Assembly (NCBI RefSeq): GCF_001677475.2
Contig: NZ_CP015229.1
Length of the DNA: 64,000 bases
From: Escherichia coli
Lineage (GTDB): Bacteria > Pseudomonadota > Gammaproteobacteria > Enterobacterales > Enterobacteriaceae
Strand: one strand, 5' to 3'
Below, piece after piece: positions 47,540-57,680 of the stretch; within the stretch, counting starts at the first letter, position 1, and every line of letters starts with the position of its first letter. The notes under the pieces are model-generated. The model saw only the letters and a program-made list of their open reading frames with translations. It made no database searches and was not told the origin of the DNA. The translations under genes were made by a program, and so were the position numbers.

Positions 47540-47616
47540 CGGCACGTAGCGCAGCCTGGTAGCGCACCGTCATGGGGTGTCGGGGGTCGGAGGTTCAAAT
47601 CCTCTCGTGCCGACCA
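47540..47616 (+). tRNA. proL: tRNA-Pro (anticodon GGG)
   Basis: CGGCACGTAGCGCAGCCTGGTAGCGCACCGTCATGGGGTGTCGGGGGTCGGAGGTTCAAATCCTCTCGTGCCGACCA; cloverleaf with GGG anticodon; encoded CCA absent. Confidence 0.9.
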
Positions 47617-47618
47617 AA
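47602..47618 (+). repeat. attL core (3' end of tRNA-Pro)
   Basis: CTCTCGTGCCGACCAAA, identical to the copy at 58597-58613. Confidence 0.8.
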
Positions 47619-47652
47619 TCGCCCACCGGAAAGCACCGAATAAGACAGGGAT

Positions 47653-47686: not shown

Positions 47687-47740
47687 TGGTTTTTAGTCAC
47701 CGAACATCACCGGATTTATAAGCTATCAGCCGGATTTTTT

Positions 47741-47790
47741 AGTTATACGTTTAGTTATACGGGCTGGCGTATAACTAAAGCCGTATAACT
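47741..47790. repeat. Candidate integrase arm-type sites: 2 x AGTTATACG followed by 2 x CGTATAACT (inverted)
   Basis: TAGTTATACGTTTAGTTATACGGGCTGGCGTATAACTAAAGCCGTATAACT just upstream of int; related GCTA(C/T)ACG pair near attR at 58515-58535. Confidence 0.5.
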
Positions 47791-47824
47791 AAAACCCTGT
47801 TTTTTCGTGTGGAATCATAGACAT

Positions 47825-49066
47825 ATGGCGAGAAAAACACCCCCATTAACCACAGTGCAGATCAAAGCAGCCAGACCAGCGCAAAAGGAGTACACCCTAC
47901 AGGACGGCGGTGGGCTTTTTCTCCTGGTAAAACCGTCCGGATCAAAACTCTGGCGATTTTCCTACTACCGACCATCGGACAAAAAAAGAATATTGCTGAG
48001 TTTTGGATCGCTTGAAGATGTTTCCCTGGCTGATGCCAGAAAACGCCGTAGCGAGTACAGGACGTTAATCAGTGCCGGAACTGACCCGCAGGACCATGAG
48101 AAGAAAAAACGAGAGGCAGAGGCCCGAAGACAAGGGAACACGTTCGAAAATGTGGCGGCGGCATGGTACCAGGTGAAAATCAGCCAGAATCTGGCCCCCA
48201 ACACGATTAAAGACATCTGGCGTTCGCTGGATAAATATGTATTCCCGTTCATCGGCAACACGCCAATAGATACCCTCACCGCTCGCCGCTTTGTTGAGAT
48301 ACTCACACCCATTAAAGCACGCGGCAACCTGGAAACTCTGAAACGCGTTTTACAACGCATCAATGAAGTGATGGATTTTGCTGCCAACAGTGGGCTGATT
48401 GACATCAACACCGCCGCGAACGTCCGCAAGGCATTCCCTTCCCCCACTAAAAAGCATATGCCAACCATCCGACCGGAACAGCTACCGCAGCTAATGCACG
48501 ATTTATCGGTCGCCAGCATAGAACGGCAAACCAGATTGCTAATCGAGTGGCAACTGCTGACCGTAGCACGCCCAGCCGAAGCAGCCGCCGCACGCTGGGA
48601 AGAAATAGATCTCGATGCCGAAACATGGACGATTCCAGCCGGACGCATGAAGATGCGCCGTGACCATGTGATCCCTCTTTGCGGTCAGGCGATAGCTGTA
48701 CTGGAAACAATGAAGCCAATCAGCGCACACAGGGAACATGTTTTTCCCAGCCTTAAAAATCCAATGCTGCCAATGAGCAGCCAGACCGCTAACGCTGCAT
48801 TGCGCCGGATGGGATACGCTGGTGTGCTGGTGTCTCACGGATTACGCGCCATATTCAGTACAGCAGCGAACGAGGAAGGATTCGAGCCGGACGTAATCGA
48901 GGCCGCACTCGCACACGTGGACACGAACGAGGTAAGGCGAGCATATAACCGAAGTAACTACCTGGAAAAGCGCGTGGTGCTTATGCGCTGGTGGGGGGAA
49001 TTTGTAGAGGCCGCAGCTACCGGAGTGACCATAGCCAGTGGTAAAAGGGGTATCCGTGCCGTGTAA
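47825..49066 (+). CDS. int: Tyrosine recombinase / integrase, P4-like (N-terminal DUF4102-type arm-binding domain)
   Basis: MARKTPPLTTVQIKAARPAQKEYTLQDGGGLFLLVKPSGSKLWRFSYY... with C-terminal catalytic region (HGLRA...RAYNRSNY); adjacent to tRNA. The GTG at 47807 is an alternative start. Confidence 0.85.
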   Translation: MARKTPPLTTVQIKAARPAQKEYTLQDGGGLFLLVKPSGSKLWRFSYYRPSDKKRILLSFGSLEDVSLADARKRRSEYRTLISAGTDPQDHEKKKREAEARRQGNTFENVAAAWYQVKISQNLAPNTIKDIWRSLDKYVFPFIGNTPIDTLTARRFVEILTPIKARGNLETLKRVLQRINEVMDFAANSGLIDINTAANVRKAFPSPTKKHMPTIRPEQLPQLMHDLSVASIERQTRLLIEWQLLTVARPAEAAAARWEEIDLDAETWTIPAGRMKMRRDHVIPLCGQAIAVLETMKPISAHREHVFPSLKNPMLPMSSQTANAALRRMGYAGVLVSHGLRAIFSTAANEEGFEPDVIEAALAHVDTNEVRRAYNRSNYLEKRVVLMRWWGEFVEAAATGVTIASGKRGIRAV

Positions 49067-49164
49067 CTGTACAAAAAACCAGTAAAAGCGATGCAAACCA
49101 TGCCAAACCATCGTATAATTGCCACAAATTTAACGACAAGGCCGGAGTATATGAAAATTCTATT

Positions 49165-49395
49165 ATGCAAAATACCACCGCCTACGGCGAAGGGCTGCAA
49201 CTGGCGTTAATGGCAAATCGTGAATTCTGGTCAACATACGATCCGGAAGACAAATCAACAGCCCCCACAAAACACGAGGTAGTCAGTTTTTTGCGCTCGC
49301 GTGGTGCATCGAAAAATCTGGCTGAAAGCATCGACAAGGTGCTGAGGCCCACCAGCCTTAAATGCGGTGGGCGACCTAAGAAGTGGAAACGGTAA
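49165..49395 (+). CDS. Hypothetical small protein (76 aa) followed by a terminator-like hairpin
   Basis: ORF with basic C-terminus (GGRPKKWKR); hairpin ATAGCGGCCCTTTGCGGTCGCTATTTTTTT at 49401-49430. Confidence 0.35.
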   Translation: MQNTTAYGEGLQLALMANREFWSTYDPEDKSTAPTKHEVVSFLRSRGASKNLAESIDKVLRPTSLKCGGRPKKWKR

Positions 49396-49565
49396 TCACA
49401 ATAGCGGCCCTTTGCGGTCGCTATTTTTTTGCAGAAAGAAAAGCGTAATCAATGAGATAAAAAACAGTGGGTACCGTTTTAAAACGGTGGGTACTGTTTT
49501 TCCCGCCCTGCCCTGTTTTACCGTATTTATCACCGGAATACGCCGGATTAACGAGGTAAAACATA

Positions 49566-49772
49566 GTGGAAACAATCAGAAAAATACTTACCCGTCAGGA
49601 AGTAAAAAATATTCTGCGCATCAAGGCAGACAGTTCGCTACAGGACATGATCAACGCCGGAAAATTCCCGAAAGGCTTCAAAATCGGTCTGCGTCGTGTT
49701 GGCTGGTATGAAGATGAAGTGCTGGCCTGGCTGAAAGAGCGCGAGGAAGAAGCGCGCGGAACGGCTGCGTAA
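49566..49772 (+). CDS. alpA: AlpA-family (HTH_17) transcriptional regulator / excisionase-like protein
   Basis: GTG start with GAGG SD; 68 aa, LTRQEVKNILRIKADSSLQDMINAGKFPKGFKIGLRRVGWYEDEVLAWL matches the AlpA/prophage CP4-57 regulator pattern. Confidence 0.8.
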   Translation: METIRKILTRQEVKNILRIKADSSLQDMINAGKFPKGFKIGLRRVGWYEDEVLAWLKEREEEARGTAA

Positions 49773-50054
49773 TGGTGTGAGGCGTAACGCGATGAACATA
49801 ACAAAAAGCGCCCCGTTGCCGGAGCGCCCTTGCGAACAATTAACCTACTGCGCAAAAAATGAATCAGTGCAGTGGGATTATATCAACCGTGTAGCGAAGC
49901 GCCACAATTGCCGGATAACAGGCAAAACAAAGGCCACCCGCTACGGTGGCCCTTCGACACAAGCTACACGTTATCCCCAACGCATAAGCGCTGATTACTA
50001 TGCCGTGATTACATCCGGTTGGCAATGTGATCAGTGCGCTGGCTTGCTGGTGGG

Positions 50055-50234
50055 CTATTCCTGCTCTTTGGCCTTGCGTCGCTGGCGGCGTTTGATCTCG
50101 CCTTGCATTGACGCAATGATGAATTGTGATGTGCTTTCGCCTGATTCTTTCACTGATTCCATGGCGTTTACTATTTCGTGTGGTACACGAGCCTTTAGAG
50201 CTTGTGATTTTGCGTTTGTTGTACCCGTTGCCAT
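50055..50234 (-). CDS. Ribbon-helix-helix (Arc/CopG-like) DNA-binding protein; candidate island repressor
   Basis: 59 aa MATGTTNAKSQALKARVPHEIVNAMESVKESGESTSQFIIASMQGEIKRRQRRKAKEQE; GAGGA SD 6 nt upstream; terminator-like hairpin GGCCACCCGCTACGGTGGCC at 49932-49952 with T-rich tail on the minus strand. Confidence 0.6.
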   Translation of the reverse strand: MATGTTNAKSQALKARVPHEIVNAMESVKESGESTSQFIIASMQGEIKRRQRRKAKEQE

Positions 50235-50298
50235 TTCTATTCCTCTGTTGGATTGGTGGGGGACAGTATACACAGAAAAAGCACAAATAAAACTCTTA

Positions 50299-50335
50299 AT
50301 GTGGACCACACCTAGAGCATATAGTGGGCCACACC
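50299..50335. promoter_or_regulatory. Two palindromic operator-like sites (TGTGGACCACACCT and GTGGGCCACACCT) in the divergent promoter region
   Basis: GTGG-N-CCAC palindromes 24 bp apart between the RHH gene and the rightward small-gene operon. Confidence 0.45.
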
Positions 50336-50433
50336 TTGAGGTTATCAAGGTGCATAAATGCAAAGCCCCGCAAGTGTCGTTACCACTCGCAGGGCTTCTA
50401 ACCACCAACGATAGCAGAAGTATCGAGGTAGCT

Positions 50434-51113: not shown

Positions 51114-51413
51114 ATGAAAAAGAAAAATTCTGGCTTTACTGCCAGTGGTCTCCCTCGGCCTGAAATCCGCCCCGGCGATATTTTCCGGGATAACTACGGC
51201 GGCACGGTAACGATTAAAAGTATTGCCGGACGGTGCGTTACTTACCGCCGTGATGGGTACAGCTACGACTGCGTGATGCCTGTTTATCAGTTCCGGCGTG
51301 ATTTTTCACTGATACAGGCCACACCACGCAAACAGCCCACCAGCAACGCAAAGGCACGGGCAAATATTCAGAAAATGAAAAACATGATTAACGCATTCAG
51401 GGGCACAAAATGA
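51114..51413 (+). CDS. Hypothetical protein (99 aa)
   Basis: GGAG SD; stop overlaps the pri start (ATGA). Confidence 0.45.
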   Translation: MKKKNSGFTASGLPRPEIRPGDIFRDNYGGTVTIKSIAGRCVTYRRDGYSYDCVMPVYQFRRDFSLIQATPRKQPTSNAKARANIQKMKNMINAFRGTK

Positions 51414-53215
51414 AACTGGCACCGAACTTAAAAAAACAGCCACACGACAAAATGACCGAAGTCATTATTTTTGCAGGTAGTGATGCCTGGGCGCACGCGA
51501 AACAGTGGCAGGAACAGGACGGGCGACTTGCTGGCGACAACGTGCCACCTGTATGGCTGGGAGACAGCCAGCTTGACGAACTGGCAGACCTGAAAATTAT
51601 CGACGATGGTCGCTATTGTGTCCGGCTGTACAAGGCAGGCCACATCAAGCCGTCAAATATTAATGCCATCGGGCAAAAGCTGGCGGCGGCAGGTGTACGG
51701 GATGCGAGATATTACCCTGAGGGAATGCACAGCCAGAAGCGGGAGGAGTGGCGCGAATATCTGGAGCGTGCGCGCCAGAATCTTTCTGATGGTCTGGTTA
51801 TTCAGCTTCCTGTTAAGAAAAAAACAGAAGACAGCGCCGCACCACTGGCGCTTAACCAGATGGGAGCAAGCCAGCGCGGCGAAGTTCTCCTGGCACGTTA
51901 TGGCGGCGAACTGGCAATTAATGCGGACTCTGACACCGTTCACCACTACAACGGCGTTGTATGGGAGCCGGTACAGGATAAAGAGTTACAGCGGGCTATG
52001 GCACAGATTTTTATTGATGCGGAGATCAGTTATTCGCAGAACGCCATCAAATCGGCGGTCGATACCATGAAGTTAAGTTTGCCCGTAATGGGGAATACCG
52101 CCCGTAACCTGATTGGATTCAGTAACGGTGTTTTTGATACCCGGACAGGCGATTTTCGGGAGCATGACAAAAACGACTGGCTGTTAATTGCCAGTGAATT
52201 ACCGTTCAGCCCGCCAGCAGAGGGGGAAACGCTGGCAACGCATGCGCCGAATTTCTGGAAATGGTTGCGCCGTTCGGTGGCAGAGAATGGCCGTAAAGCG
52301 GATCGCGTACTGGCGGCGTTATTCATGGTGCTGGCGAACCGATACGACTGGCAGTTATTTCTTGAGGTAACGGGGCCGGGTGGAAGCGGTAAAAGCGTAA
52401 TGGCGGAGATTTGCACCATGCTGGCGGGTAAGGCCAACACGGTATCGGCAAGCATGAAGGCGCTGGAAGATGCCAGGGAACGCGCGTTAGTGGTTGGCTT
52501 TTCGCTGATTATCATGCCGGATATGACCCGCTACGCTGGTGATGGTGCAGGTATTAAGGCCATTACAGGCGGTGACAAAGTGGCAATCGACCCGAAACAT
52601 AAAGCTCCCTACTCAACACGCATTCAGGCGGTCGTGCTGGCGGTGAACAATAACGCCATGTCATTCAGTGACCGCAGTGGGGGGATCTCACGTCGTCGGG
52701 TGATATTCAATTTTTCGGAGGTTGTACCGGAGAACGAACGCGACCCCATGCTGGCAGAAAAAATAGAAGGAGAGCTGGCGGTTGTGATTCGCCACCTGCT
52801 TACTCGTTTTTCTGACCAGGACAAAGCTAAACGCCTGCTGTATGAGCAGCAGAAATCAGAAGAAGCTCTGGTGATAAAACGCGAGGGCGATTCGCTGGTG
52901 GACTTCTGCGGCTATCTCATGTCGTCGGTAATGTGTGATGGTCTGTTAGTGGGTAATGCCGAAATTATTCCGTTCAGTCCGCGCAGATATCTTTATCACG
53001 CCTATCTGGCATATATGAGGGCACACGGATTCGGTAAACCTGTAACACTGACGCGCTTCGGTAAAGATATGCCGGGGGCAATGGCGGAATATGGCAGGGA
53101 GTATATGAAACGGAAAACGAAGCACGGTTTGCGTTCAAATGTGACCCTGACAGAGGATTCAGAAGACTGGATGCCATCATGTACATCGGTCACAAATGAC
53201 GATGGAAAAAATTAA
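51410..53215 (+). CDS. Replication protein: primase C-terminal-like / SF3-type helicase P-loop NTPase (satellite Pri-Rep)
   Basis: 601-aa ORF with Walker A TGPGGSGKS and a hydrophobic stretch ending in D (Walker B-like, VVGFSLIIMPD); immediately followed by an iteron-rich origin. Confidence 0.75.
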   Translation: MKLAPNLKKQPHDKMTEVIIFAGSDAWAHAKQWQEQDGRLAGDNVPPVWLGDSQLDELADLKIIDDGRYCVRLYKAGHIKPSNINAIGQKLAAAGVRDARYYPEGMHSQKREEWREYLERARQNLSDGLVIQLPVKKKTEDSAAPLALNQMGASQRGEVLLARYGGELAINADSDTVHHYNGVVWEPVQDKELQRAMAQIFIDAEISYSQNAIKSAVDTMKLSLPVMGNTARNLIGFSNGVFDTRTGDFREHDKNDWLLIASELPFSPPAEGETLATHAPNFWKWLRRSVAENGRKADRVLAALFMVLANRYDWQLFLEVTGPGGSGKSVMAEICTMLAGKANTVSASMKALEDARERALVVGFSLIIMPDMTRYAGDGAGIKAITGGDKVAIDPKHKAPYSTRIQAVVLAVNNNAMSFSDRSGGISRRRVIFNFSEVVPENERDPMLAEKIEGELAVVIRHLLTRFSDQDKAKRLLYEQQKSEEALVIKREGDSLVDFCGYLMSSVMCDGLLVGNAEIIPFSPRRYLYHAYLAYMRAHGFGKPVTLTRFGKDMPGAMAEYGREYMKRKTKHGLRSNVTLTEDSEDWMPSCTSVTNDDGKN

Positions 53216-53227
53216 ACTTATGGAATA

Positions 53228-53459
53228 ACTGTTCACCACTGTTCACCCTGTCATAAATGTCTTTTATATCAGTACATTATAGGGTGAACAGTTATTTGTG
53301 AACTGTTCACCAAACTATTCACTGTTCACCTTTTTGATTATTTATTGAGCTTTAAGGGTGAACAGTGGTGAACAGTTGGTGAATAGTTTTTGTGAAACTG
53401 TTCACCCCTTAACATCATGAATAAAAAGGGAAAATAGCAAAAGGTGAACAGGTGAAGAG
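53228..53459. repeat. Iteron-type replication origin: about 10 copies of ACTGTTCACC / GGTGAACAG in both orientations with AT-rich spacers
   Basis: CACTGTTCACCACTGTTCACC, GGGTGAACAGTT, GTGAACTGTTCACC, TTCACTGTTCACC, GGGTGAACAGTGGTGAACAGTTGGTGAATAG, GAAACTGTTCACC, AAGGTGAACAGGTGAAGAG. Confidence 0.75.
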
Positions 53460-53502: not shown

Positions 53503-53748
53503 GTGACAACGAAGCACGCAAAAAAACCACAATCACACGCCCTTGATTTGACAGAACACTGGCTGAGGGTGGCGATAAAAATCATCGACCGCAACGCGGG
53601 AGAAGGATACGCGAAAGCGCATCCCGAACTGATAAGCGCATTCATGACCACGGCGGCGGCAAATTTTGCCACACTGACAGAACGGGAGATTGCCGAAGCG
53701 GAACAGGTGACAACCATCAACGTTAAAACCGGAGAGCAGACAGCATGA
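53503..53748 (+). CDS. Hypothetical protein (81 aa)
   Basis: GTG start with GAGGT SD; overlaps the start of the next ORF. Confidence 0.4.
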   Translation: MTTKHAKKPQSHALDLTEHWLRVAIKIIDRNAGEGYAKAHPELISAFMTTAAANFATLTEREIAEAEQVTTINVKTGEQTA

Positions 53749-54044
53749 CAGCACAGATAGCGGCTTGCGGGCGGCTGGTGGCTGACCCGCAGTTAAAGAC
53801 CACCAGCAAAGGGACACAAATGGCGATGGCGAGTATGGCGGTTCCCCTGCCGTGCAGCCAGGCAGATGACGGAACGGCGACGATGTGGTTATCTGTCCTG
53901 GCGTTTGGCAGACAGGCCGACGCACTGGCAAAACACCACAAAGGCGAACTCCTGAGCGTGGCGGGTAACATGCAGGTGAGCCAGTGGACAGGCCAGAACG
54001 GCGCGACCGGGCGGCAAAAAAGGTCAACAGGGCCAGGCCACTGA
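53745..54044 (+). CDS. SSB-like OB-fold single-stranded DNA-binding protein (short form)
   Basis: IAACGRLVADPQLKTT...WLSVLAFGRQADALAKHHKGELLSVAGNMQVSQWTGQNG follows the SSB OB-fold pattern (GxL..DPEL... W..V.xFG ... KG..V.V.G.L....W). Confidence 0.55.
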   Translation: MTAQIAACGRLVADPQLKTTSKGTQMAMASMAVPLPCSQADDGTATMWLSVLAFGRQADALAKHHKGELLSVAGNMQVSQWTGQNGATGRQKRSTGPGH

Positions 54045-54322
54045 CGCACTGAACAGGGCAAAACAACAGTCAGGGAATGATGAACCGTACGGCGATAATA
54101 TACCGTTTTAAATTCTGCAAACAAAAAGATGCCGGAAAAAAATAGATTTTCCGGCATGCTACATAAATCCCGACCAAAGGAAGTAAATACATTAACACGA
54201 ATTATCAGCACTGAAGTTGTCACGGCATATTTTATACAACATTGCACTTGGTTGCATGTATTCGCATAGCAGACATCGGTAATAGAATATATTCACAATT
54301 ATTTGTAATGAATGTAAAGAGG

Positions 54323-55369
54323 ATGAGTATGGTTGATTTATATTCGCCTACACAGCTTGTGCAGGTGGCTAATGCTGAAGATGTGCAAAAAAAATTAAAT
54401 GCGTTGTTTACCAGTTTGTTTTTCACTCGCTCGGTAATGTTTGAATCGAGAGACATTATTCTTGATACGATCGACGATCCAAATATCCCGATCGCGGCGT
54501 TTTGCTCTCCTATGGTGGGCAGTAAAGTTTCACGAGATGAGGGATACGAATCAAAAACAATTCGCCCTGGCTATATGAAACCGAAAAGCAGTATTGATCC
54601 AAATAAGTTAGCTGTGCGCCCTGCTGGTGTATCACCTGAGCAATACAATGCTTTTGGGGCGCGTAATATTAAAGTTAAACAGGCGATTGTAAATCAGGCT
54701 AAAGCTATTCGTGCACGTATTGAATGGCTTGCTGTTCAGGCAATCACAACGGGGAAAAATATCATTGAGGGCGATGGTATTGAACGTTATGAGCTGGACT
54801 GGAATATAAAACCACAAAATATCATCACTCAGTCTGGCGGTACTGAGTGGTCAGGTAAGGATAAAGAAACTTTTGATCCAAATGATGATATTGAGAGCTA
54901 CGCAGAATTTAGTGAGGGCGTCACTAATATCATCATTATGGGTGGTAATGTATGGAAGAAATACCGTTCATTCAGAGCGATAAAAGAGGCTTTGGATACC
55001 CGTCGTGGTTCTAATTCCGAACTGGAAACGGCCCTTAAAGACCTTGGTGATTCGGTGAGTTTTAAAGGGTATATGGGCGATGTTGCGATTGTTGTTTACA
55101 GCGGGCGTTATACCGACGAGGACGGAACAGAAAAACATTTCCTTGATCCTGATTTGATGGTGCTTGGCAATACGGCTCTTCAGGGGATTGTCGCCTATGG
55201 CGGTATTCAGGATCCGGAGCTAATCCGAATGGGGCTGACTAAAGCCGAACTTGCACCGAAAAACTATATTGTGCCTGGTGATCCGGCTATTGAATATGTG
55301 CAGACACATTCAGCACCACAGCCAATACCGGCCCGCATCAATCGTTTTGTTACCGTTCGCATTGGCTAA
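54323..55369 (+). CDS. Major capsid protein, lambda gpE family
   Basis: MSMVDLYSPTQL... with NITQSGGTEWSGKDKETFDPNDDIESYA, DTRRGSNSELETALKDLGDSVSFKG and GDVAIVVYSG, matching lambda E as recalled from memory (start may be the ATG at 54329). Confidence 0.8.
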   Translation: MSMVDLYSPTQLVQVANAEDVQKKLNALFTSLFFTRSVMFESRDIILDTIDDPNIPIAAFCSPMVGSKVSRDEGYESKTIRPGYMKPKSSIDPNKLAVRPAGVSPEQYNAFGARNIKVKQAIVNQAKAIRARIEWLAVQAITTGKNIIEGDGIERYELDWNIKPQNIITQSGGTEWSGKDKETFDPNDDIESYAEFSEGVTNIIIMGGNVWKKYRSFRAIKEALDTRRGSNSELETALKDLGDSVSFKGYMGDVAIVVYSGRYTDEDGTEKHFLDPDLMVLGNTALQGIVAYGGIQDPELIRMGLTKAELAPKNYIVPGDPAIEYVQTHSAPQPIPARINRFVTVRIG

Positions 55370-55378
55370 GGGGGAGCA

Positions 55379-55720
55379 ATGGCTACTCATTACACTGAAC
55401 TCATGTCTGGCACTGAAGCACTGGTTACTACGCTGGGGATATTTTCAGCCAATAAAGGGGTAATACCTGCGTTTACGCCACTGATGCAGGAAGATGCAAC
55501 TGGTGCGCTAGTGGTATGGGATGGAACGAGCGCAGGCAAAGCGGTTTATGTTTCCGCTGTACAAATCGACACAGCGAAAAAAACACAGGCACAGGTTTAT
55601 AAGACAGGTGTTTTAAATGTTGATGCTCTGAACTGGCCTGAGTCTGTAAAAGAACTGTCGGCAAAGGTTGCCGCGTTTGTTGGCTCAGGTATTTCTGTTC
55701 AGCCGCTGGCTCGTGTGTAA
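55379..55720 (+). CDS. Head decoration protein, lambda gpD family
   Basis: 113 aa; TPLMQEDATGALVVWDGTSAGKAV...YKTGVLNVDALNWPE...AAFVGSGISV parallels lambda D as recalled from memory. Confidence 0.75.
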   Translation: MATHYTELMSGTEALVTTLGIFSANKGVIPAFTPLMQEDATGALVVWDGTSAGKAVYVSAVQIDTAKKTQAQVYKTGVLNVDALNWPESVKELSAKVAAFVGSGISVQPLARV

Positions 55721-55731
55721 AGGGGGATACA

Positions 55732-56115
55732 ATGCAGAATCATTACAATGACCTTAAGCCAATTGCCGAAATGATGTATCCGGATCCAGCAGTAGAGGAA
55801 TTAAAGGCTATTGCTGACAAAATGCGTTTAAGTGAACGCCTTGTTGATATGAATCAGGTGATGGAACTTACTACCCTTAGCCGTCGCACATTGCTAAACC
55901 TTGAGGCTCGCGGAGAGTTCCCCGAACGCGTACAGGTTACGGAAGGGCGTAAGGCCTGGTATTTAAGTGAAGTGATCGACTGGATAAACAATATTCCTCG
56001 AGCTTCTGAATATTGCCGCGTACCTGTCCCAAAAAAGCCAGATGCGGCGCTATGCCTCAAGATTGAGCGTGTACGTCGCAATGCACGGGATGGTCGCTAT
56101 AAGTTGATTGGTTGA
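55732..56115 (+). CDS. AlpA/HTH_17-family DNA-binding protein with N-terminal extension
   Basis: LVDMNQVMELTTLSRRTLLNLEARGEFPERVQVTEGRKAWYLSEVIDWINN matches the AlpA-type HTH pattern; lies directly upstream of cos. Confidence 0.55.
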   Translation: MQNHYNDLKPIAEMMYPDPAVEELKAIADKMRLSERLVDMNQVMELTTLSRRTLLNLEARGEFPERVQVTEGRKAWYLSEVIDWINNIPRASEYCRVPVPKKPDAALCLKIERVRRNARDGRYKLIG

Positions 56116-56140
56116 TGAAATTAGGGCCCGTTCTGGCTGG

Positions 56141-56215
56141 CGGGTCCTTTCCGGCGATCCGGTAGGCTACGGGGCGGCGACCTTGCGGATTTTCGCTATT
56201 TATGAGCCTTTTCGG
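56141..56215 (+). other. Lambda-type cos site (cosQ-cosN plus conserved flank)
   Basis: CGGGTCCTTTCCGGCGATCCGGTAGGCTACG|GGGCGGCGACCT|TGCGGATTTTCGCTATTTATGA; the 12-nt GGGCGGCGACCT (56172-56183) equals the lambda cohesive end as recalled from memory. Confidence 0.75.
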
Positions 56216-56316
56216 GTTGGTGGTGGTGGTTTTGTTTTTCGCTCTATCTCTATGAATAAAAAGGGAAAGATAACACCAACACACCAACCTGAAACCTTAA
56301 CTAAGTGGGGATATTG

Positions 56317-56859
56317 ATGAAATCGCACCTGATGAACAAAAAAACTATGGCGCAAAGCTGCCGCGTAAGTGCGACAGCGTTCGACAAGTGGGGAGTAACT
56401 CCCGTTGAGCGTAAAGGCCGTGAGGCGTTTTATGATGTTGCCAGCGTGATAGACAATAGGGTTAACAATGCAATTAACCAGCTTACAAACGACAAAGGCG
56501 AGATTGATGATGATGAACTTTTACGCGTAAGAATCAGATTAATGACGGCCCAGGCGGAAGCGCAGGAACTTAAAAACGAGCGCGAACGCGGCGAGGTGAT
56601 TGATACAAAGTTTTGCATCTACGCGATTTCAAAACTGGCGAGTCAGATTTCATCAATCATGGACAGCCTCCCGCTCACAATGCAAAGGCGCTTTCCCGAT
56701 ATAAGGCCGTATATGCTGGATGAACTAAAAAGGGAAATAGCCAAAGCATGTAACGCATGTGCAAGACTTGACGAAAACCTGCCACAGATACTGGCTGATT
56801 ACCTGATGGAAACTACCGGAAGCGCGCCTGAGAAGTTGCTACAGAACAAAGGCGAGTAA
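56317..56859 (+). CDS. Terminase small subunit, lambda Nu1 family (no large subunit gene follows)
   Basis: RLMTAQAEAQELKNERERGEVIDTKFCIYAISKLASQISSIMDSLPLTMQRRFPD and C-terminal LKREIAKACNACARLDENLPQILADYL match lambda Nu1 as recalled from memory; gene sits about 135 bp downstream of cosN. Confidence 0.75.
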   Translation: MKSHLMNKKTMAQSCRVSATAFDKWGVTPVERKGREAFYDVASVIDNRVNNAINQLTNDKGEIDDDELLRVRIRLMTAQAEAQELKNERERGEVIDTKFCIYAISKLASQISSIMDSLPLTMQRRFPDIRPYMLDELKREIAKACNACARLDENLPQILADYLMETTGSAPEKLLQNKGE

Positions 56860-56932
56860 CCGCCGCCCCGTAACGGGCCATAATTCCAGGAGGGACCCGA
56901 CGACACCAGGCTATCAGAGCGATGGGGGCACA

Positions 56933-57214
56933 ATGACAGAAGCCGAAATACTGCGATTAATCCGCCGCGTTACCGGAATCAGCCAGCAGGCTGACGAACA
57001 GGCCACGCAGCCGGACAGCGTGACCGCTGAAAATTATGTGCGTGTTGTTGCTGAGGTGATGCGCCGTGATGGTATTGAGCTTAACGGCGTGGATATGCGC
57101 AACATACGAACAAGAGTCCTTGAGTTGCTGGCATACCGTCGCCGGATACAGACGTACAGGGAAAAAGCCAAAATAACGTACCAGTGGAAGAAGCCGGAGC
57201 GGTTACGGCGGTAA
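56933..57214 (+). CDS. Hypothetical protein (93 aa)
   Basis: ATG ORF downstream of terS-like gene; Arg-rich C-terminus; no recognised motif. Confidence 0.4.
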   Translation: MTEAEILRLIRRVTGISQQADEQATQPDSVTAENYVRVVAEVMRRDGIELNGVDMRNIRTRVLELLAYRRRIQTYREKAKITYQWKKPERLRR

Positions 57215-57235
57215 CTTGCTGAACTTAAAGCATAA

Positions 57236-57333
57236 TGGAAATTTGCACTCTGGCCTAACCCGTTAATATTTCAGCAAAGTGCAAATTTGCGTTCTGTAGC
57301 TGGTGGCTGGCAGAATGTAAATTTACATTCTGG
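57236..57333. repeat. Three related palindromic sites sharing an AAATTT core and ending in TTCTG or CTCTG
   Basis: GGAAATTTGCACTCTGG (57236), GTGCAAATTTGCGTTCTG (57279), CAGAATGTAAATTTACATTCTGG (57311; 20-bp perfect palindrome). Confidence 0.6.
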
Positions 57334-57337
57334 TGAT

Positions 57338-57637
57338 TTAATCATCTGATTTACCCAGCCCGTACCGGATTACCGTACAGTGAGCGCCATCGCTACCGAT
57401 ACGCACATCAAAGCGGGGTTCGCGCACTTTCACGCGGTACAGGATCCCATCATTTACCATAGCGTTTAACGTTCGTCGGGTTGCCTCTATGTGGTATCGC
57501 TGATATTCGGAACCATAGAGCAGCAATGTAACACCACGAACATCAAATGGTGGTTCTCCAGCCTCCACCCGCACCCAATCGCGATACTCAGGTTTGTAAA
57601 GTTCAAGAATCTGTTTTTTGTGCCTGGTCATTCTCAT
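57338..57637 (-). CDS. Hypothetical protein (99 aa), reverse-oriented accessory gene
   Basis: ATG preceded by AGGA SD 7 nt upstream; MRMTRHKKQILELYKPEYRDWVRVEAG...; no recognisable family. Confidence 0.5.
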   Translation of the reverse strand: MRMTRHKKQILELYKPEYRDWVRVEAGEPPFDVRGVTLLLYGSEYQRYHIEATRRTLNAMVNDGILYRVKVREPRFDVRIGSDGAHCTVIRYGLGKSDD

Positions 57638-57680
57638 GTGTGATTCCTTATTGTGGGACAGTACTGTCATACAATAAGCT

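Follow-up and report, generated by a model that had tools for sequence, protein, structure and literature searches.

In the phage-inducible chromosomal islands (PICIs) of Escherichia coli, AlpA is the master activator: it stimulates its own promoter, and a helper phage switches alpA on (PMC6092414, PMC11773190). Induction of alpA is SOS-independent and its inducer has not been identified (PMC6092414); two papers on satellites state that how helpers turn on alpA in Gram-negative satellites is not known (PMC6092414, PMC10803314). While alpA promoters are thus already known to be regulated, literature searches found neither a mapped alpA operator nor an identified inducer. Here we describe a 40-bp tandem repeat at positions 49461-49500 of a 64-kb stretch of E. 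coli DNA (contig NZ_CP015229.1; the window, to which all coordinates refer), in front of the alpA gene of an 11-kb PICI-type satellite. That the two repeats, O1 and O2, form a conserved candidate protein-binding site controlling alpA is well supported; more tentatively, we propose that they are bound by the product of orf76, a small gene lying between int and alpA.

The island has the layout of EcCICFT073 (Fillol-Salom et al. 2018, PMC6092414), with int, alpA, a YlcI/YnfO gene on the minus strand, icd-like genes, DUF4222, primase, single-stranded DNA-binding protein (SSB), PerC and lambda E/D-like capsid genes. EcCICFT073 differs in that its AlpA allele is unrelated and its int and alpA have no gene between them; AAAACNGT palindromes and GGTGGGTAC cores are both absent, and 10-bp phased ACAAC repeats take their place upstream. 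The corresponding region of the window is laid out as follows.

49165..49395, plus strand: orf76, an unannotated open reading frame of 76 codons.
49400..49431, plus strand: intrinsic terminator ending the int-orf76 transcript (10-bp stem with 5 GC pairs, then a T-run).
49461..49480, plus strand: O1, the distal candidate operator, AAAACAGT-GGGT-ACCGTTTT.
49481..49500, plus strand: O2, the proximal candidate operator, AAAACGGT-GGGT-ACTGTTTT, containing the core GGTGGGTAC.
49473..49488, no strand assigned: junction palindrome ACCGTTTTAAAACGGT (inverted repeat I1), a perfect 16-bp palindrome made where the O1 right arm adjoins the O2 left arm.
49566..49772, plus strand: alpA, 68 aa, GTG start, Shine-Dalgarno GAGG at 49553-49556 (Phage_AlpA, E = 4.5e-8; HTH_17).

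A first-pass annotation of the region had reported near-identical direct repeats, AGTGGGTACCGTTTT at 49466-49480 and GGTGGGTACTGTTTT at 49486-49500, creating the junction palindrome about 70 bp upstream of the alpA GTG. Repeats and palindrome are confirmed and the distance is roughly right, as 65 nt separate the end of O2 from the GTG and 85 nt the centre of the junction palindrome from it. The GTG itself is corroborated by an ATG at the same position in other alleles, by the GAGG 9 nt upstream and by the Pfam match of the product, which PHROG assigns to "excisionase and transcriptional regulator". The full repeats are two head-to-tail 20-mers, AAAACAGTGGGTACCGTTTT and AAAACGGTGGGTACTGTTTT, identical at 18 of 20 positions (family D1 of the repeat finder). 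Each is an 8-4-8 palindrome, AAAACRGT-N4-ACYGTTTT, with a constant unit length of 20 bp; the repeat finder also scores the entire 40 bp as near-palindromic. O1 and O2 are the only exact matches to AAAACRGTNNNNACYGTTTT in the 64 kb. When up to two mismatches are allowed, three matches are found against 0.07 expected, a number reached by none of 100 shuffles. Because the centres of O1 and O2 lie 20 bp apart, about two helical turns, both sites would face the same side of the DNA.

To characterize selection on the element, 27 distinct upstream variants were aligned and the variable columns counted by region.

49481-49488 and 49493-49500, O2 arms: 0 of 16 columns variable.
O1 arms: 4 of 16 columns variable.
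The two centres together: 7 of 8 columns variable (O2 centre, 3 of 4).
49501-49515: 10 of 15 columns variable.
49432-49460: 19 of 29 columns variable.
All non-operator non-coding columns: 59 of 130 variable (about 45%).

At the background rate, 16 invariant columns have a probability of about 6e-5, a figure that is naive about shared ancestry; the contrast between the invariant O2 arms and the variable centre next to them is, however, internal to the element. Changes in the O1 arms are few and none is compensatory. The element shows what is expected of a dimer-type operator: dyad symmetry, arms that are conserved and a fixed-length spacer under less constraint.

In IMG/VR, 46 satellite-sized contigs have the tandem element. 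There, as in E. coli chromosomes, it is always placed 65 nt upstream of the AlpA allele of 68 aa (75 nt in a type having one extra 10-bp repeat) and occurs at no other place. Related islands are present in 441 of 5426 complete E. coli genomes; when alleles about 78% identical are compared, the alignment with the window begins exactly at the repeats. Scanning 100,044 species genomes for the tandem element gave a single match (3342-3369 of L138, a contig from a Phycisphaerales metagenome-assembled genome), judged to be due to chance; it follows a pectate-lyase-like gene and has no alpA. The tandem element is effectively confined to E. coli. As a side remark, TTACCGTATTTT occurs some 75 nt downstream of the L138 match, a double resemblance that is odd.

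Two natural variants bear on the unit. In L097 (IMGVR_UViG_2874945390_000001) and L194, exactly one 20-mer is left: O1 is deleted, O2 is intact and the junction palindrome is lost. Because exactly one 20-mer is missing in both, the 20-mer, rather than the junction palindrome of the first-pass annotation, appears to be the functional unit. Separately, alpA of L194 has an in-frame stop (CGCTAGGAAG), and at least this island may be decaying. Altogether, the general idea of a regulator-binding site controlling alpA is upheld by the fixed position, the invariant arms and the lack of compensatory variation; the junction palindrome as unit is not upheld, and neither of the two proteins put forward as binders, the ribbon-helix-helix (YlcI/YnfO) protein and AlpA, is favoured. 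The former was discarded as a required partner, its gene being undetectable in about 16 of 58 operator-bearing islands (about a quarter). As to AlpA, it is not the best candidate, for the core motif tracks orf76-family genes rather than the AlpA type.

The evidence for this association came from distant islands. Such comparisons were needed because throughout the E. coli proL group the operators are completely linked both to orf76 and to the 68-aa AlpA. A word-indexed search made orf76 appear to be an E. coli orphan; a profile search recovered 623 relatives at E <= 0.001. Orf76 corresponds to the C-terminal domain, about 60 aa long, of proteins of 200-280 aa, the E. coli form being truncated to that domain (signature ...FWSTYDPxDxxTAPxKxxVxxYLxxxGxSKNxAxAIDxxLRPxxLxxxGRPKK). 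Full-length members have a conserved N-terminal domain, DYPNxxHWKxVxEFTxEQAALLLAGIDP. No Pfam, PHROG or NCBIfam model covers the family. The order P4-type int, orf76-family gene, alpA is conserved wherever the context is readable (L141, L144, L146 and L197-L209 were examined).

In 11 islands, the gap that separates alpA from the orf76-family gene was searched, with up to two mismatches, for the core GGTGGGTAC as defined from the window. The gaps contain 30 matches, 28 of them outside the window, as compared to 2.7 +/- 1.7 in shuffled sequences (maximum 8). In distant islands the core usually has the flank WTAATGGTGGGTAC, and its variants are GTGGGTAC versus GTGGGCAC. Distant gaps often show two inverted copies at a distance of 22 bp immediately behind the stop codon, with one to three more copies closer to alpA; in most of the distant 4-5 kb loci examined, matches with at most one mismatch fall in the gap. 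In most of these islands, namely the L197-L208 set and L144, AlpA is canonical and about 29% identical to the window AlpA (measured for L144); the figures for L141 and L146 are 26% and 69%. Conversely, proL islands lacking orf76 encode a 63-aa AlpA (AlpA-63) that is 72% identical to that of the window, with a near-identical wing (GLRRxGW), and an Int about 87-88% identical; they have no gene between int and alpA and no palindromes. Four islands without an orf76-family gene have zero or one weak GGTGGGTAC match in the gap, EcCICFT073 having none. Thus, on sequence comparison, the motif appears to follow the orf76-family gene, and neither the AlpA type nor Int. For this reason Orf76 is named as the likeliest binder.

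How the element might act depends on the alpA promoter. A consensus scan detected no sigma-70 promoter within 49000-50000. In a position weight matrix scan of three variant types, the sole -35/-10 arrangement common to all was TTTTT[C/A]-N16-TACCGT. The features concerned are:

49497..49502, plus strand: weak candidate for the -35, TTTTTC or TTTTTA, which overlaps O2 at its right arm.
49517..49528, plus strand: invariant block TTTACCGTATTT, in which part of the right arm is repeated a third time (TACCGTATT, family D3).

Candidate -10 hexamers in or at this block are TACCGT (49519-49524) and TATTTA (49524-49529). The TACCGT arrangement would place the start near 49531, O2 near -41 and O1 near -61; choosing TATTTA shifts these positions by 5 bp.

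We envisage, from the sequences compared, that O1 and O2 could be operators through which Orf76, the predicted binder, gates alpA, a tentative proposal to which we would give somewhat less than an even chance. With inverted AAAAC/GTTTT arms on either side, a GTGGGTAC-type core would occupy the middle of each site, and both sites would lie at the -35 position, or a little upstream of it, in a promoter without a good -35. Seemingly co-transcribed with int and separated from the operators by the terminator, orf76 would be expressed along with int in the quiescent island, and Orf76 bound over the -35 region would control access of RNA polymerase to the alpA promoter. The sign we favour is repression, with the island remaining silent until a helper phage relieves it, because co-expression with int would be constitutive, the operator overlaps the candidate -35, and a motif copy in distant islands abuts a TATATT -10-like hexamer. 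AlpA, after its synthesis, would use separate CACCGGAWTA direct repeats, located in the leader and in attL, for auto-activation and excision. Helper-induced alpA expression, excision and transfer, like auto-activation by AlpA, are reported from related islands. The opposite sign, Orf76 as a phage-responsive activator, is a live alternative.

Several observations weigh against this proposal or against parts of it. [quoted passage not shown] Only with the weak predicted promoter TTTTTC-N16-TACCGT would the element overlap the alpA core promoter; moreover, if a potential leader hairpin described below were a real RNA helix, transcription would have to start upstream of 49514, which conflicts with the TACCGT start. 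Fold and family searches with Orf76 yielded nothing significant or diagnostic, the protein looking like a generic three-helix bundle; its AlphaFold2 model (mean confidence, pLDDT, 79.5) has helices at 5-22, 36-45 and 50-60, the third of them SKNLAESIDKV, and a basic GGRPKKWKR tail. The linkage in the E. coli group means that the case against AlpA binding is built on few distant islands and two orf76-less lineages. Among the distant islands, L144 has no core match, only arm-like AACCGTTT copies; L204, L205 and L208 have 2-mismatch or variant cores only; and L146, despite core matches and an orf76-family protein 52% identical, has no AAAAC palindromes. Finally, it is the arms that are invariant in the E. 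coli group, not the centre, and the O1 centres GTAT and TCTA destroy the GTGGGTAC core. Invariant arms in E. coli, as opposed to a core shared across distant islands, make a discrepancy that appears to fit a core-centred motif poorly.

In the potential leader hairpin, TG(T/A)TTTACC at 49514-49522 (TGTTTTACC) can pair with GGTAAA(A/T)CA at 49555-49563 (GGTAAAACA), just after the Shine-Dalgarno sequence; another island clade has TGATTTACC and GGTAAATCA at these places, and the two clades differ by one compensatory exchange (AU:7, UA:5). The pairing may form a hairpin masking the ribosome-binding region. A leader of another kind, ATCTCGTAAACCGCAATAGACGTTACGAGGTAAATATG, is nearly invariant about 40 nt before alpA in distant canonical-AlpA islands (L201, L203-L208); its inverted repeat CTCGTAA/TTACGAG covers the Shine-Dalgarno sequence, and the TATATT hexamer next to a motif copy is found there.

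The alternative that O1 and O2 are auto-regulatory sites for AlpA, two dimers or four monomers activating from about -41/-61, is in our judgement unlikely, although auto-activation of the alpA promoter is reported for EcCICFT073 (PMC6092414), linkage of the operators to the 68-aa AlpA allele is without exception, and both the geometry and the missing -35 would suit an activator. The palindromes are absent from islands whose AlpA is 72% (AlpA-63) or 69% (L146) identical, whereas the same core accompanies AlpA proteins only 29% identical. Furthermore, AlpA/Xis-type winged helices usually bind head-to-tail direct repeats, whereas the 20-mers are palindromic, have a 20-bp period and lack any copy in the vicinity of attL or attR, although an excisionase-type AlpA would be expected to bind at those places too. 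Direct repeats of the expected kind exist separately:

49531..49550, plus strand: CACCGGAATA and CGCCGGATTA, a tandem pair of 10-bp direct repeats within the alpA leader (2 of 20 columns variable).
47624..47643, plus strand: two tandem CACCGRAWWN repeats in attL, adjoining the att core.
47698..47737, plus strand: further copies, CACCGAACAT, CACCGGATTT and AGCCGGATTT, in the attL arm.

Leader and attL repeats are on the same strand and in 10-bp register. There are three leader copies in the RM7190 type and three attL copies in the Nissle-type island; the observation also covers 4150-4190 of L002. Phased direct repeats in an att arm and in the regulator's own promoter are the sites expected of excisionase-type winged-helix proteins such as lambda Xis and P4 Vis. 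The CACCGGAWTA repeats, arranged head-to-tail at about one helical turn and also present in the att arm, are more plausibly the AlpA/excisionase sites and appear to fit AlpA better than do the 20-mers. AlpA-63 islands lack them and have ATCGTT-type repeats in attL instead. Int arm-type sites are distinct (TAGTTATACG, four copies at 47740-47791, with relatives near attR). Searching PDB sequences with AlpA returned one match, 8C3T (E = 0.023), an unpublished "AlpA family" entry for which a literature search found no paper.

We consider it similarly improbable that O1 and O2 are the landing site of a factor from outside the island, where the helper signal would be read, be it a helper-phage activator, as P2 Ogr is at P4 late promoters, or an E. 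coli transcription factor. In related PICIs, alpA transcription does depend on a helper and the inducer is unidentified; dyad symmetry and a position near -41/-61 fit a dimeric activator, and lambdoid helpers are suggested by the capsid (E, D) and Nu1-type genes. However, lambda, the sole helper scanned, has one match at three mismatches against 0.7 expected. Among the IMG/VR matches listed, single-operator matches outside satellites come from unrelated metagenomic phages. No P2 Ogr site (TGT-N12-ACA) is found within 49430-49530 and no LexA box within 49430-49565. An external factor would leave the tracking of orf76-family genes by the motif across hosts unexplained. Mimicry of a helper-phage site was rejected: lambda has no such site beyond chance, whether as CI/Cro operator or as O-protein iteron, and the single-operator matches listed from IMG/VR are the satellites and unrelated metagenomic phages. 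Upon inspection, LexA (CTGT-N8-ACAG), CRP, Ogr, lambda CI and PdhR/ExuR-like (GGT-N3-ACC) sites do not fit. In the course of the IMG/VR scan, a jumbo-phage repeat, CTAAAACAGTTAAAACTGTTTTTCGATAAA, was seen in several copies per genome in contigs of 125-325 kb (L060-L064, L079-L080, L098-L099, L104-L105); it is unrelated, matching the single-operator pattern by chance of composition.

It is very unlikely that the element works as a nucleic-acid structure, whether a hairpin, attenuator or bidirectional terminator in int-orf76 read-through RNA, or a cruciform. The 40-mer does fold as one long hairpin (-16.6 kcal/mol, z = -2.0) with a U-run at its end, and the terminator scan lists a terminator-like site at 49472-49489. 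Yet none of the three possible pairings shows a compensatory change among 12 distinct variants, each O1 arm substitution breaking a pair; the stem is mostly A-U, unlike the G+C-rich stem expected of an intrinsic terminator, and a strong terminator already lies 30 nt upstream (the other allele type has one of different sequence at the same position). One-unit variants exist, and the motif copies of distant islands occur singly and in either orientation. The hairpin-terminator reading was rejected on the lack of covariation, in spite of the favourable fold; because there is no compensatory change and no Rfam match, the element is treated as a protein-binding site. The idea of a functionless neutral tandem duplication can be set aside as next to negligible: slippage or recombination between repeats would explain copy numbers of one or two units, but not O2 arms that stay unchanged in lineages differing from one another at about 45% of flank columns, nor the fixed position relative to alpA and the recurrence of the motif in distant islands.

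The satellite is inserted at tRNA-Pro(GGG) (proL), between yejM and yejO. Its remaining features are:

47540-47616: tRNA-Pro.
47598..47625, plus strand: attL core, the 3' end of tRNA-Pro (repeat family D2).
47807..49066, plus strand: int, P4-type tyrosine integrase (Arm-DNA-bind_3, Phage_int_M, Phage_integrase).
About 50055-50234, minus strand: ribbon-helix-helix-like YlcI/YnfO gene, 59 aa.
51114-51413: DUF4222 gene.
51410-53215: D5/P4-type primase.
53745-58052: SSB, lambda E-/D-like capsid genes (Phage_cap_E, HDPD), a second AlpA-domain protein, Nu1-type small terminase and PerC.
58593-58620: attR, partner of attL, giving an island of about 11 kb.

The sequence hallmarks of a Gram-negative PICI are present: int beside a tRNA and att site with flanking direct repeats, alpA after int in the same orientation and followed by the primase, and phage-derived packaging and capsid genes without tail or lysis genes, all within 11 kb. 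The second AlpA-domain protein (55732-56115; 127 aa; Phage_AlpA, E = 1.4e-8) belongs to the packaging module, with the lambda D-like decoration gene on one side and the Nu1-type terS on the other, and may be related to the packaging redirection described for EcCICFT073. An identical 17-mer, ATGAATAAAAAGGGAAA, recurs at 53417-53433, after the primase, and at 56252-56268, just before the small-terminase gene. Both copies lie within regions giving long-hairpin-type sub-threshold Rfam matches and may be associated with ori or cos; apart from the tRNA, Rfam gave nothing in the island but chance sub-threshold matches. The minus-strand region after alpA is mosaic (50055-50408 of the window versus 16675-17151 of L001): where the window has the YlcI/YnfO-type gene, the place is taken in sister islands by a different hypothetical protein of 158 aa or by an "ash family" pseudogene, or is empty. 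On the plus strand, the region has annotated icd-like fragments. Near the right end, at 58156-58217 and about 380 bp before attR, there are some 14 copies of the tetranucleotide GGCT (8-bp units GGCTGGCT).

In the literature available, there is no description of the element, of its link to the orf76 family, or of the separate direct-repeat motif. What the analysis delivers is a delimited 40-bp element, a candidate binder encoded by the small gene between int and alpA, and a separable CACCGGAWTA motif. A broader possibility, which we regard as doubtful on present sequence comparisons, is that the Orf76 family supplies the upstream regulators so far missing from the account of Gram-negative PICIs and of related AlpA islands, acting at GGTGGGTAC-type operators and serving as the helper's target, either by Stl-like anti-repression or as a phage sensor. 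If Orf76 were indeed the helper's target, the tandem repeats of the window would be where the helper's signal is turned into induction of the satellite. Failing all of this, the element would still be a conserved operator of an ordinary kind, belonging to a promoter whose regulation was known before.

Comparison with other known systems places these proposals in context. The AlpA binding element of Pseudomonas aeruginosa (PMC7969949) is also a promoter-embedded site for a small winged-helix AlpA; it differs in being a GGGACG-N5-GGTA sequence between -35 and -10 that loads an antiterminator on RNA polymerase and is missing here, and P. aeruginosa AlpA is not among the PDB sequence matches to the window AlpA. 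The lambda OR1-OR2 pair resembles O1-O2 in having adjacent operators of about 17-20 bp with conserved arms, a looser centre, overlap with a promoter (a predicted one for O1-O2) and a spacing suited to cooperative dimers, but its sequence is unrelated, and only two sites are present here.

Upstream of the alpA homologue vis, the P4 late promoter PLL carries an Ogr/Delta site and is autoregulated by Vis (discussed in PMC10111431). As proposed for the window, an AlpA-family gene comes first under a helper-responsive promoter, with a dyad-symmetric site upstream of a poor -35; in P4 the AlpA homologue also binds its own promoter and the att region. The Ogr/Delta site of PLL is, however, TGT-N12-ACA at about -55, missing here, where the proposed binder is an island protein of another, uncharacterised family. 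The iolg and icg genes of the Vibrio PICMI (PMC10803314) are, like orf76, small genes contiguous and expressed with int, before alpA, and are needed for helper-induced activation; iolg is interpreted as part of the excision complex, no DNA motif is reported for it, and its likeness to orf76 is by position only.

A parallel, if Orf76 represses, would be Stl of the Staphylococcus aureus pathogenicity islands (SaPIs), with the stl-str operator region of Gram-positive PICIs (summarised in PMC6092414): a regulator encoded beside int and made constitutively keeps the activation module off until a helper product intervenes. The arrangements differ in that stl is divergent from its target, and the proteins are unrelated. 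To our knowledge, Gram-negative PICIs are currently described as having no Stl-like repressor. If repression by Orf76 were borne out, the anti-repression logic of the SaPIs would after all extend to Gram-negative PICIs.

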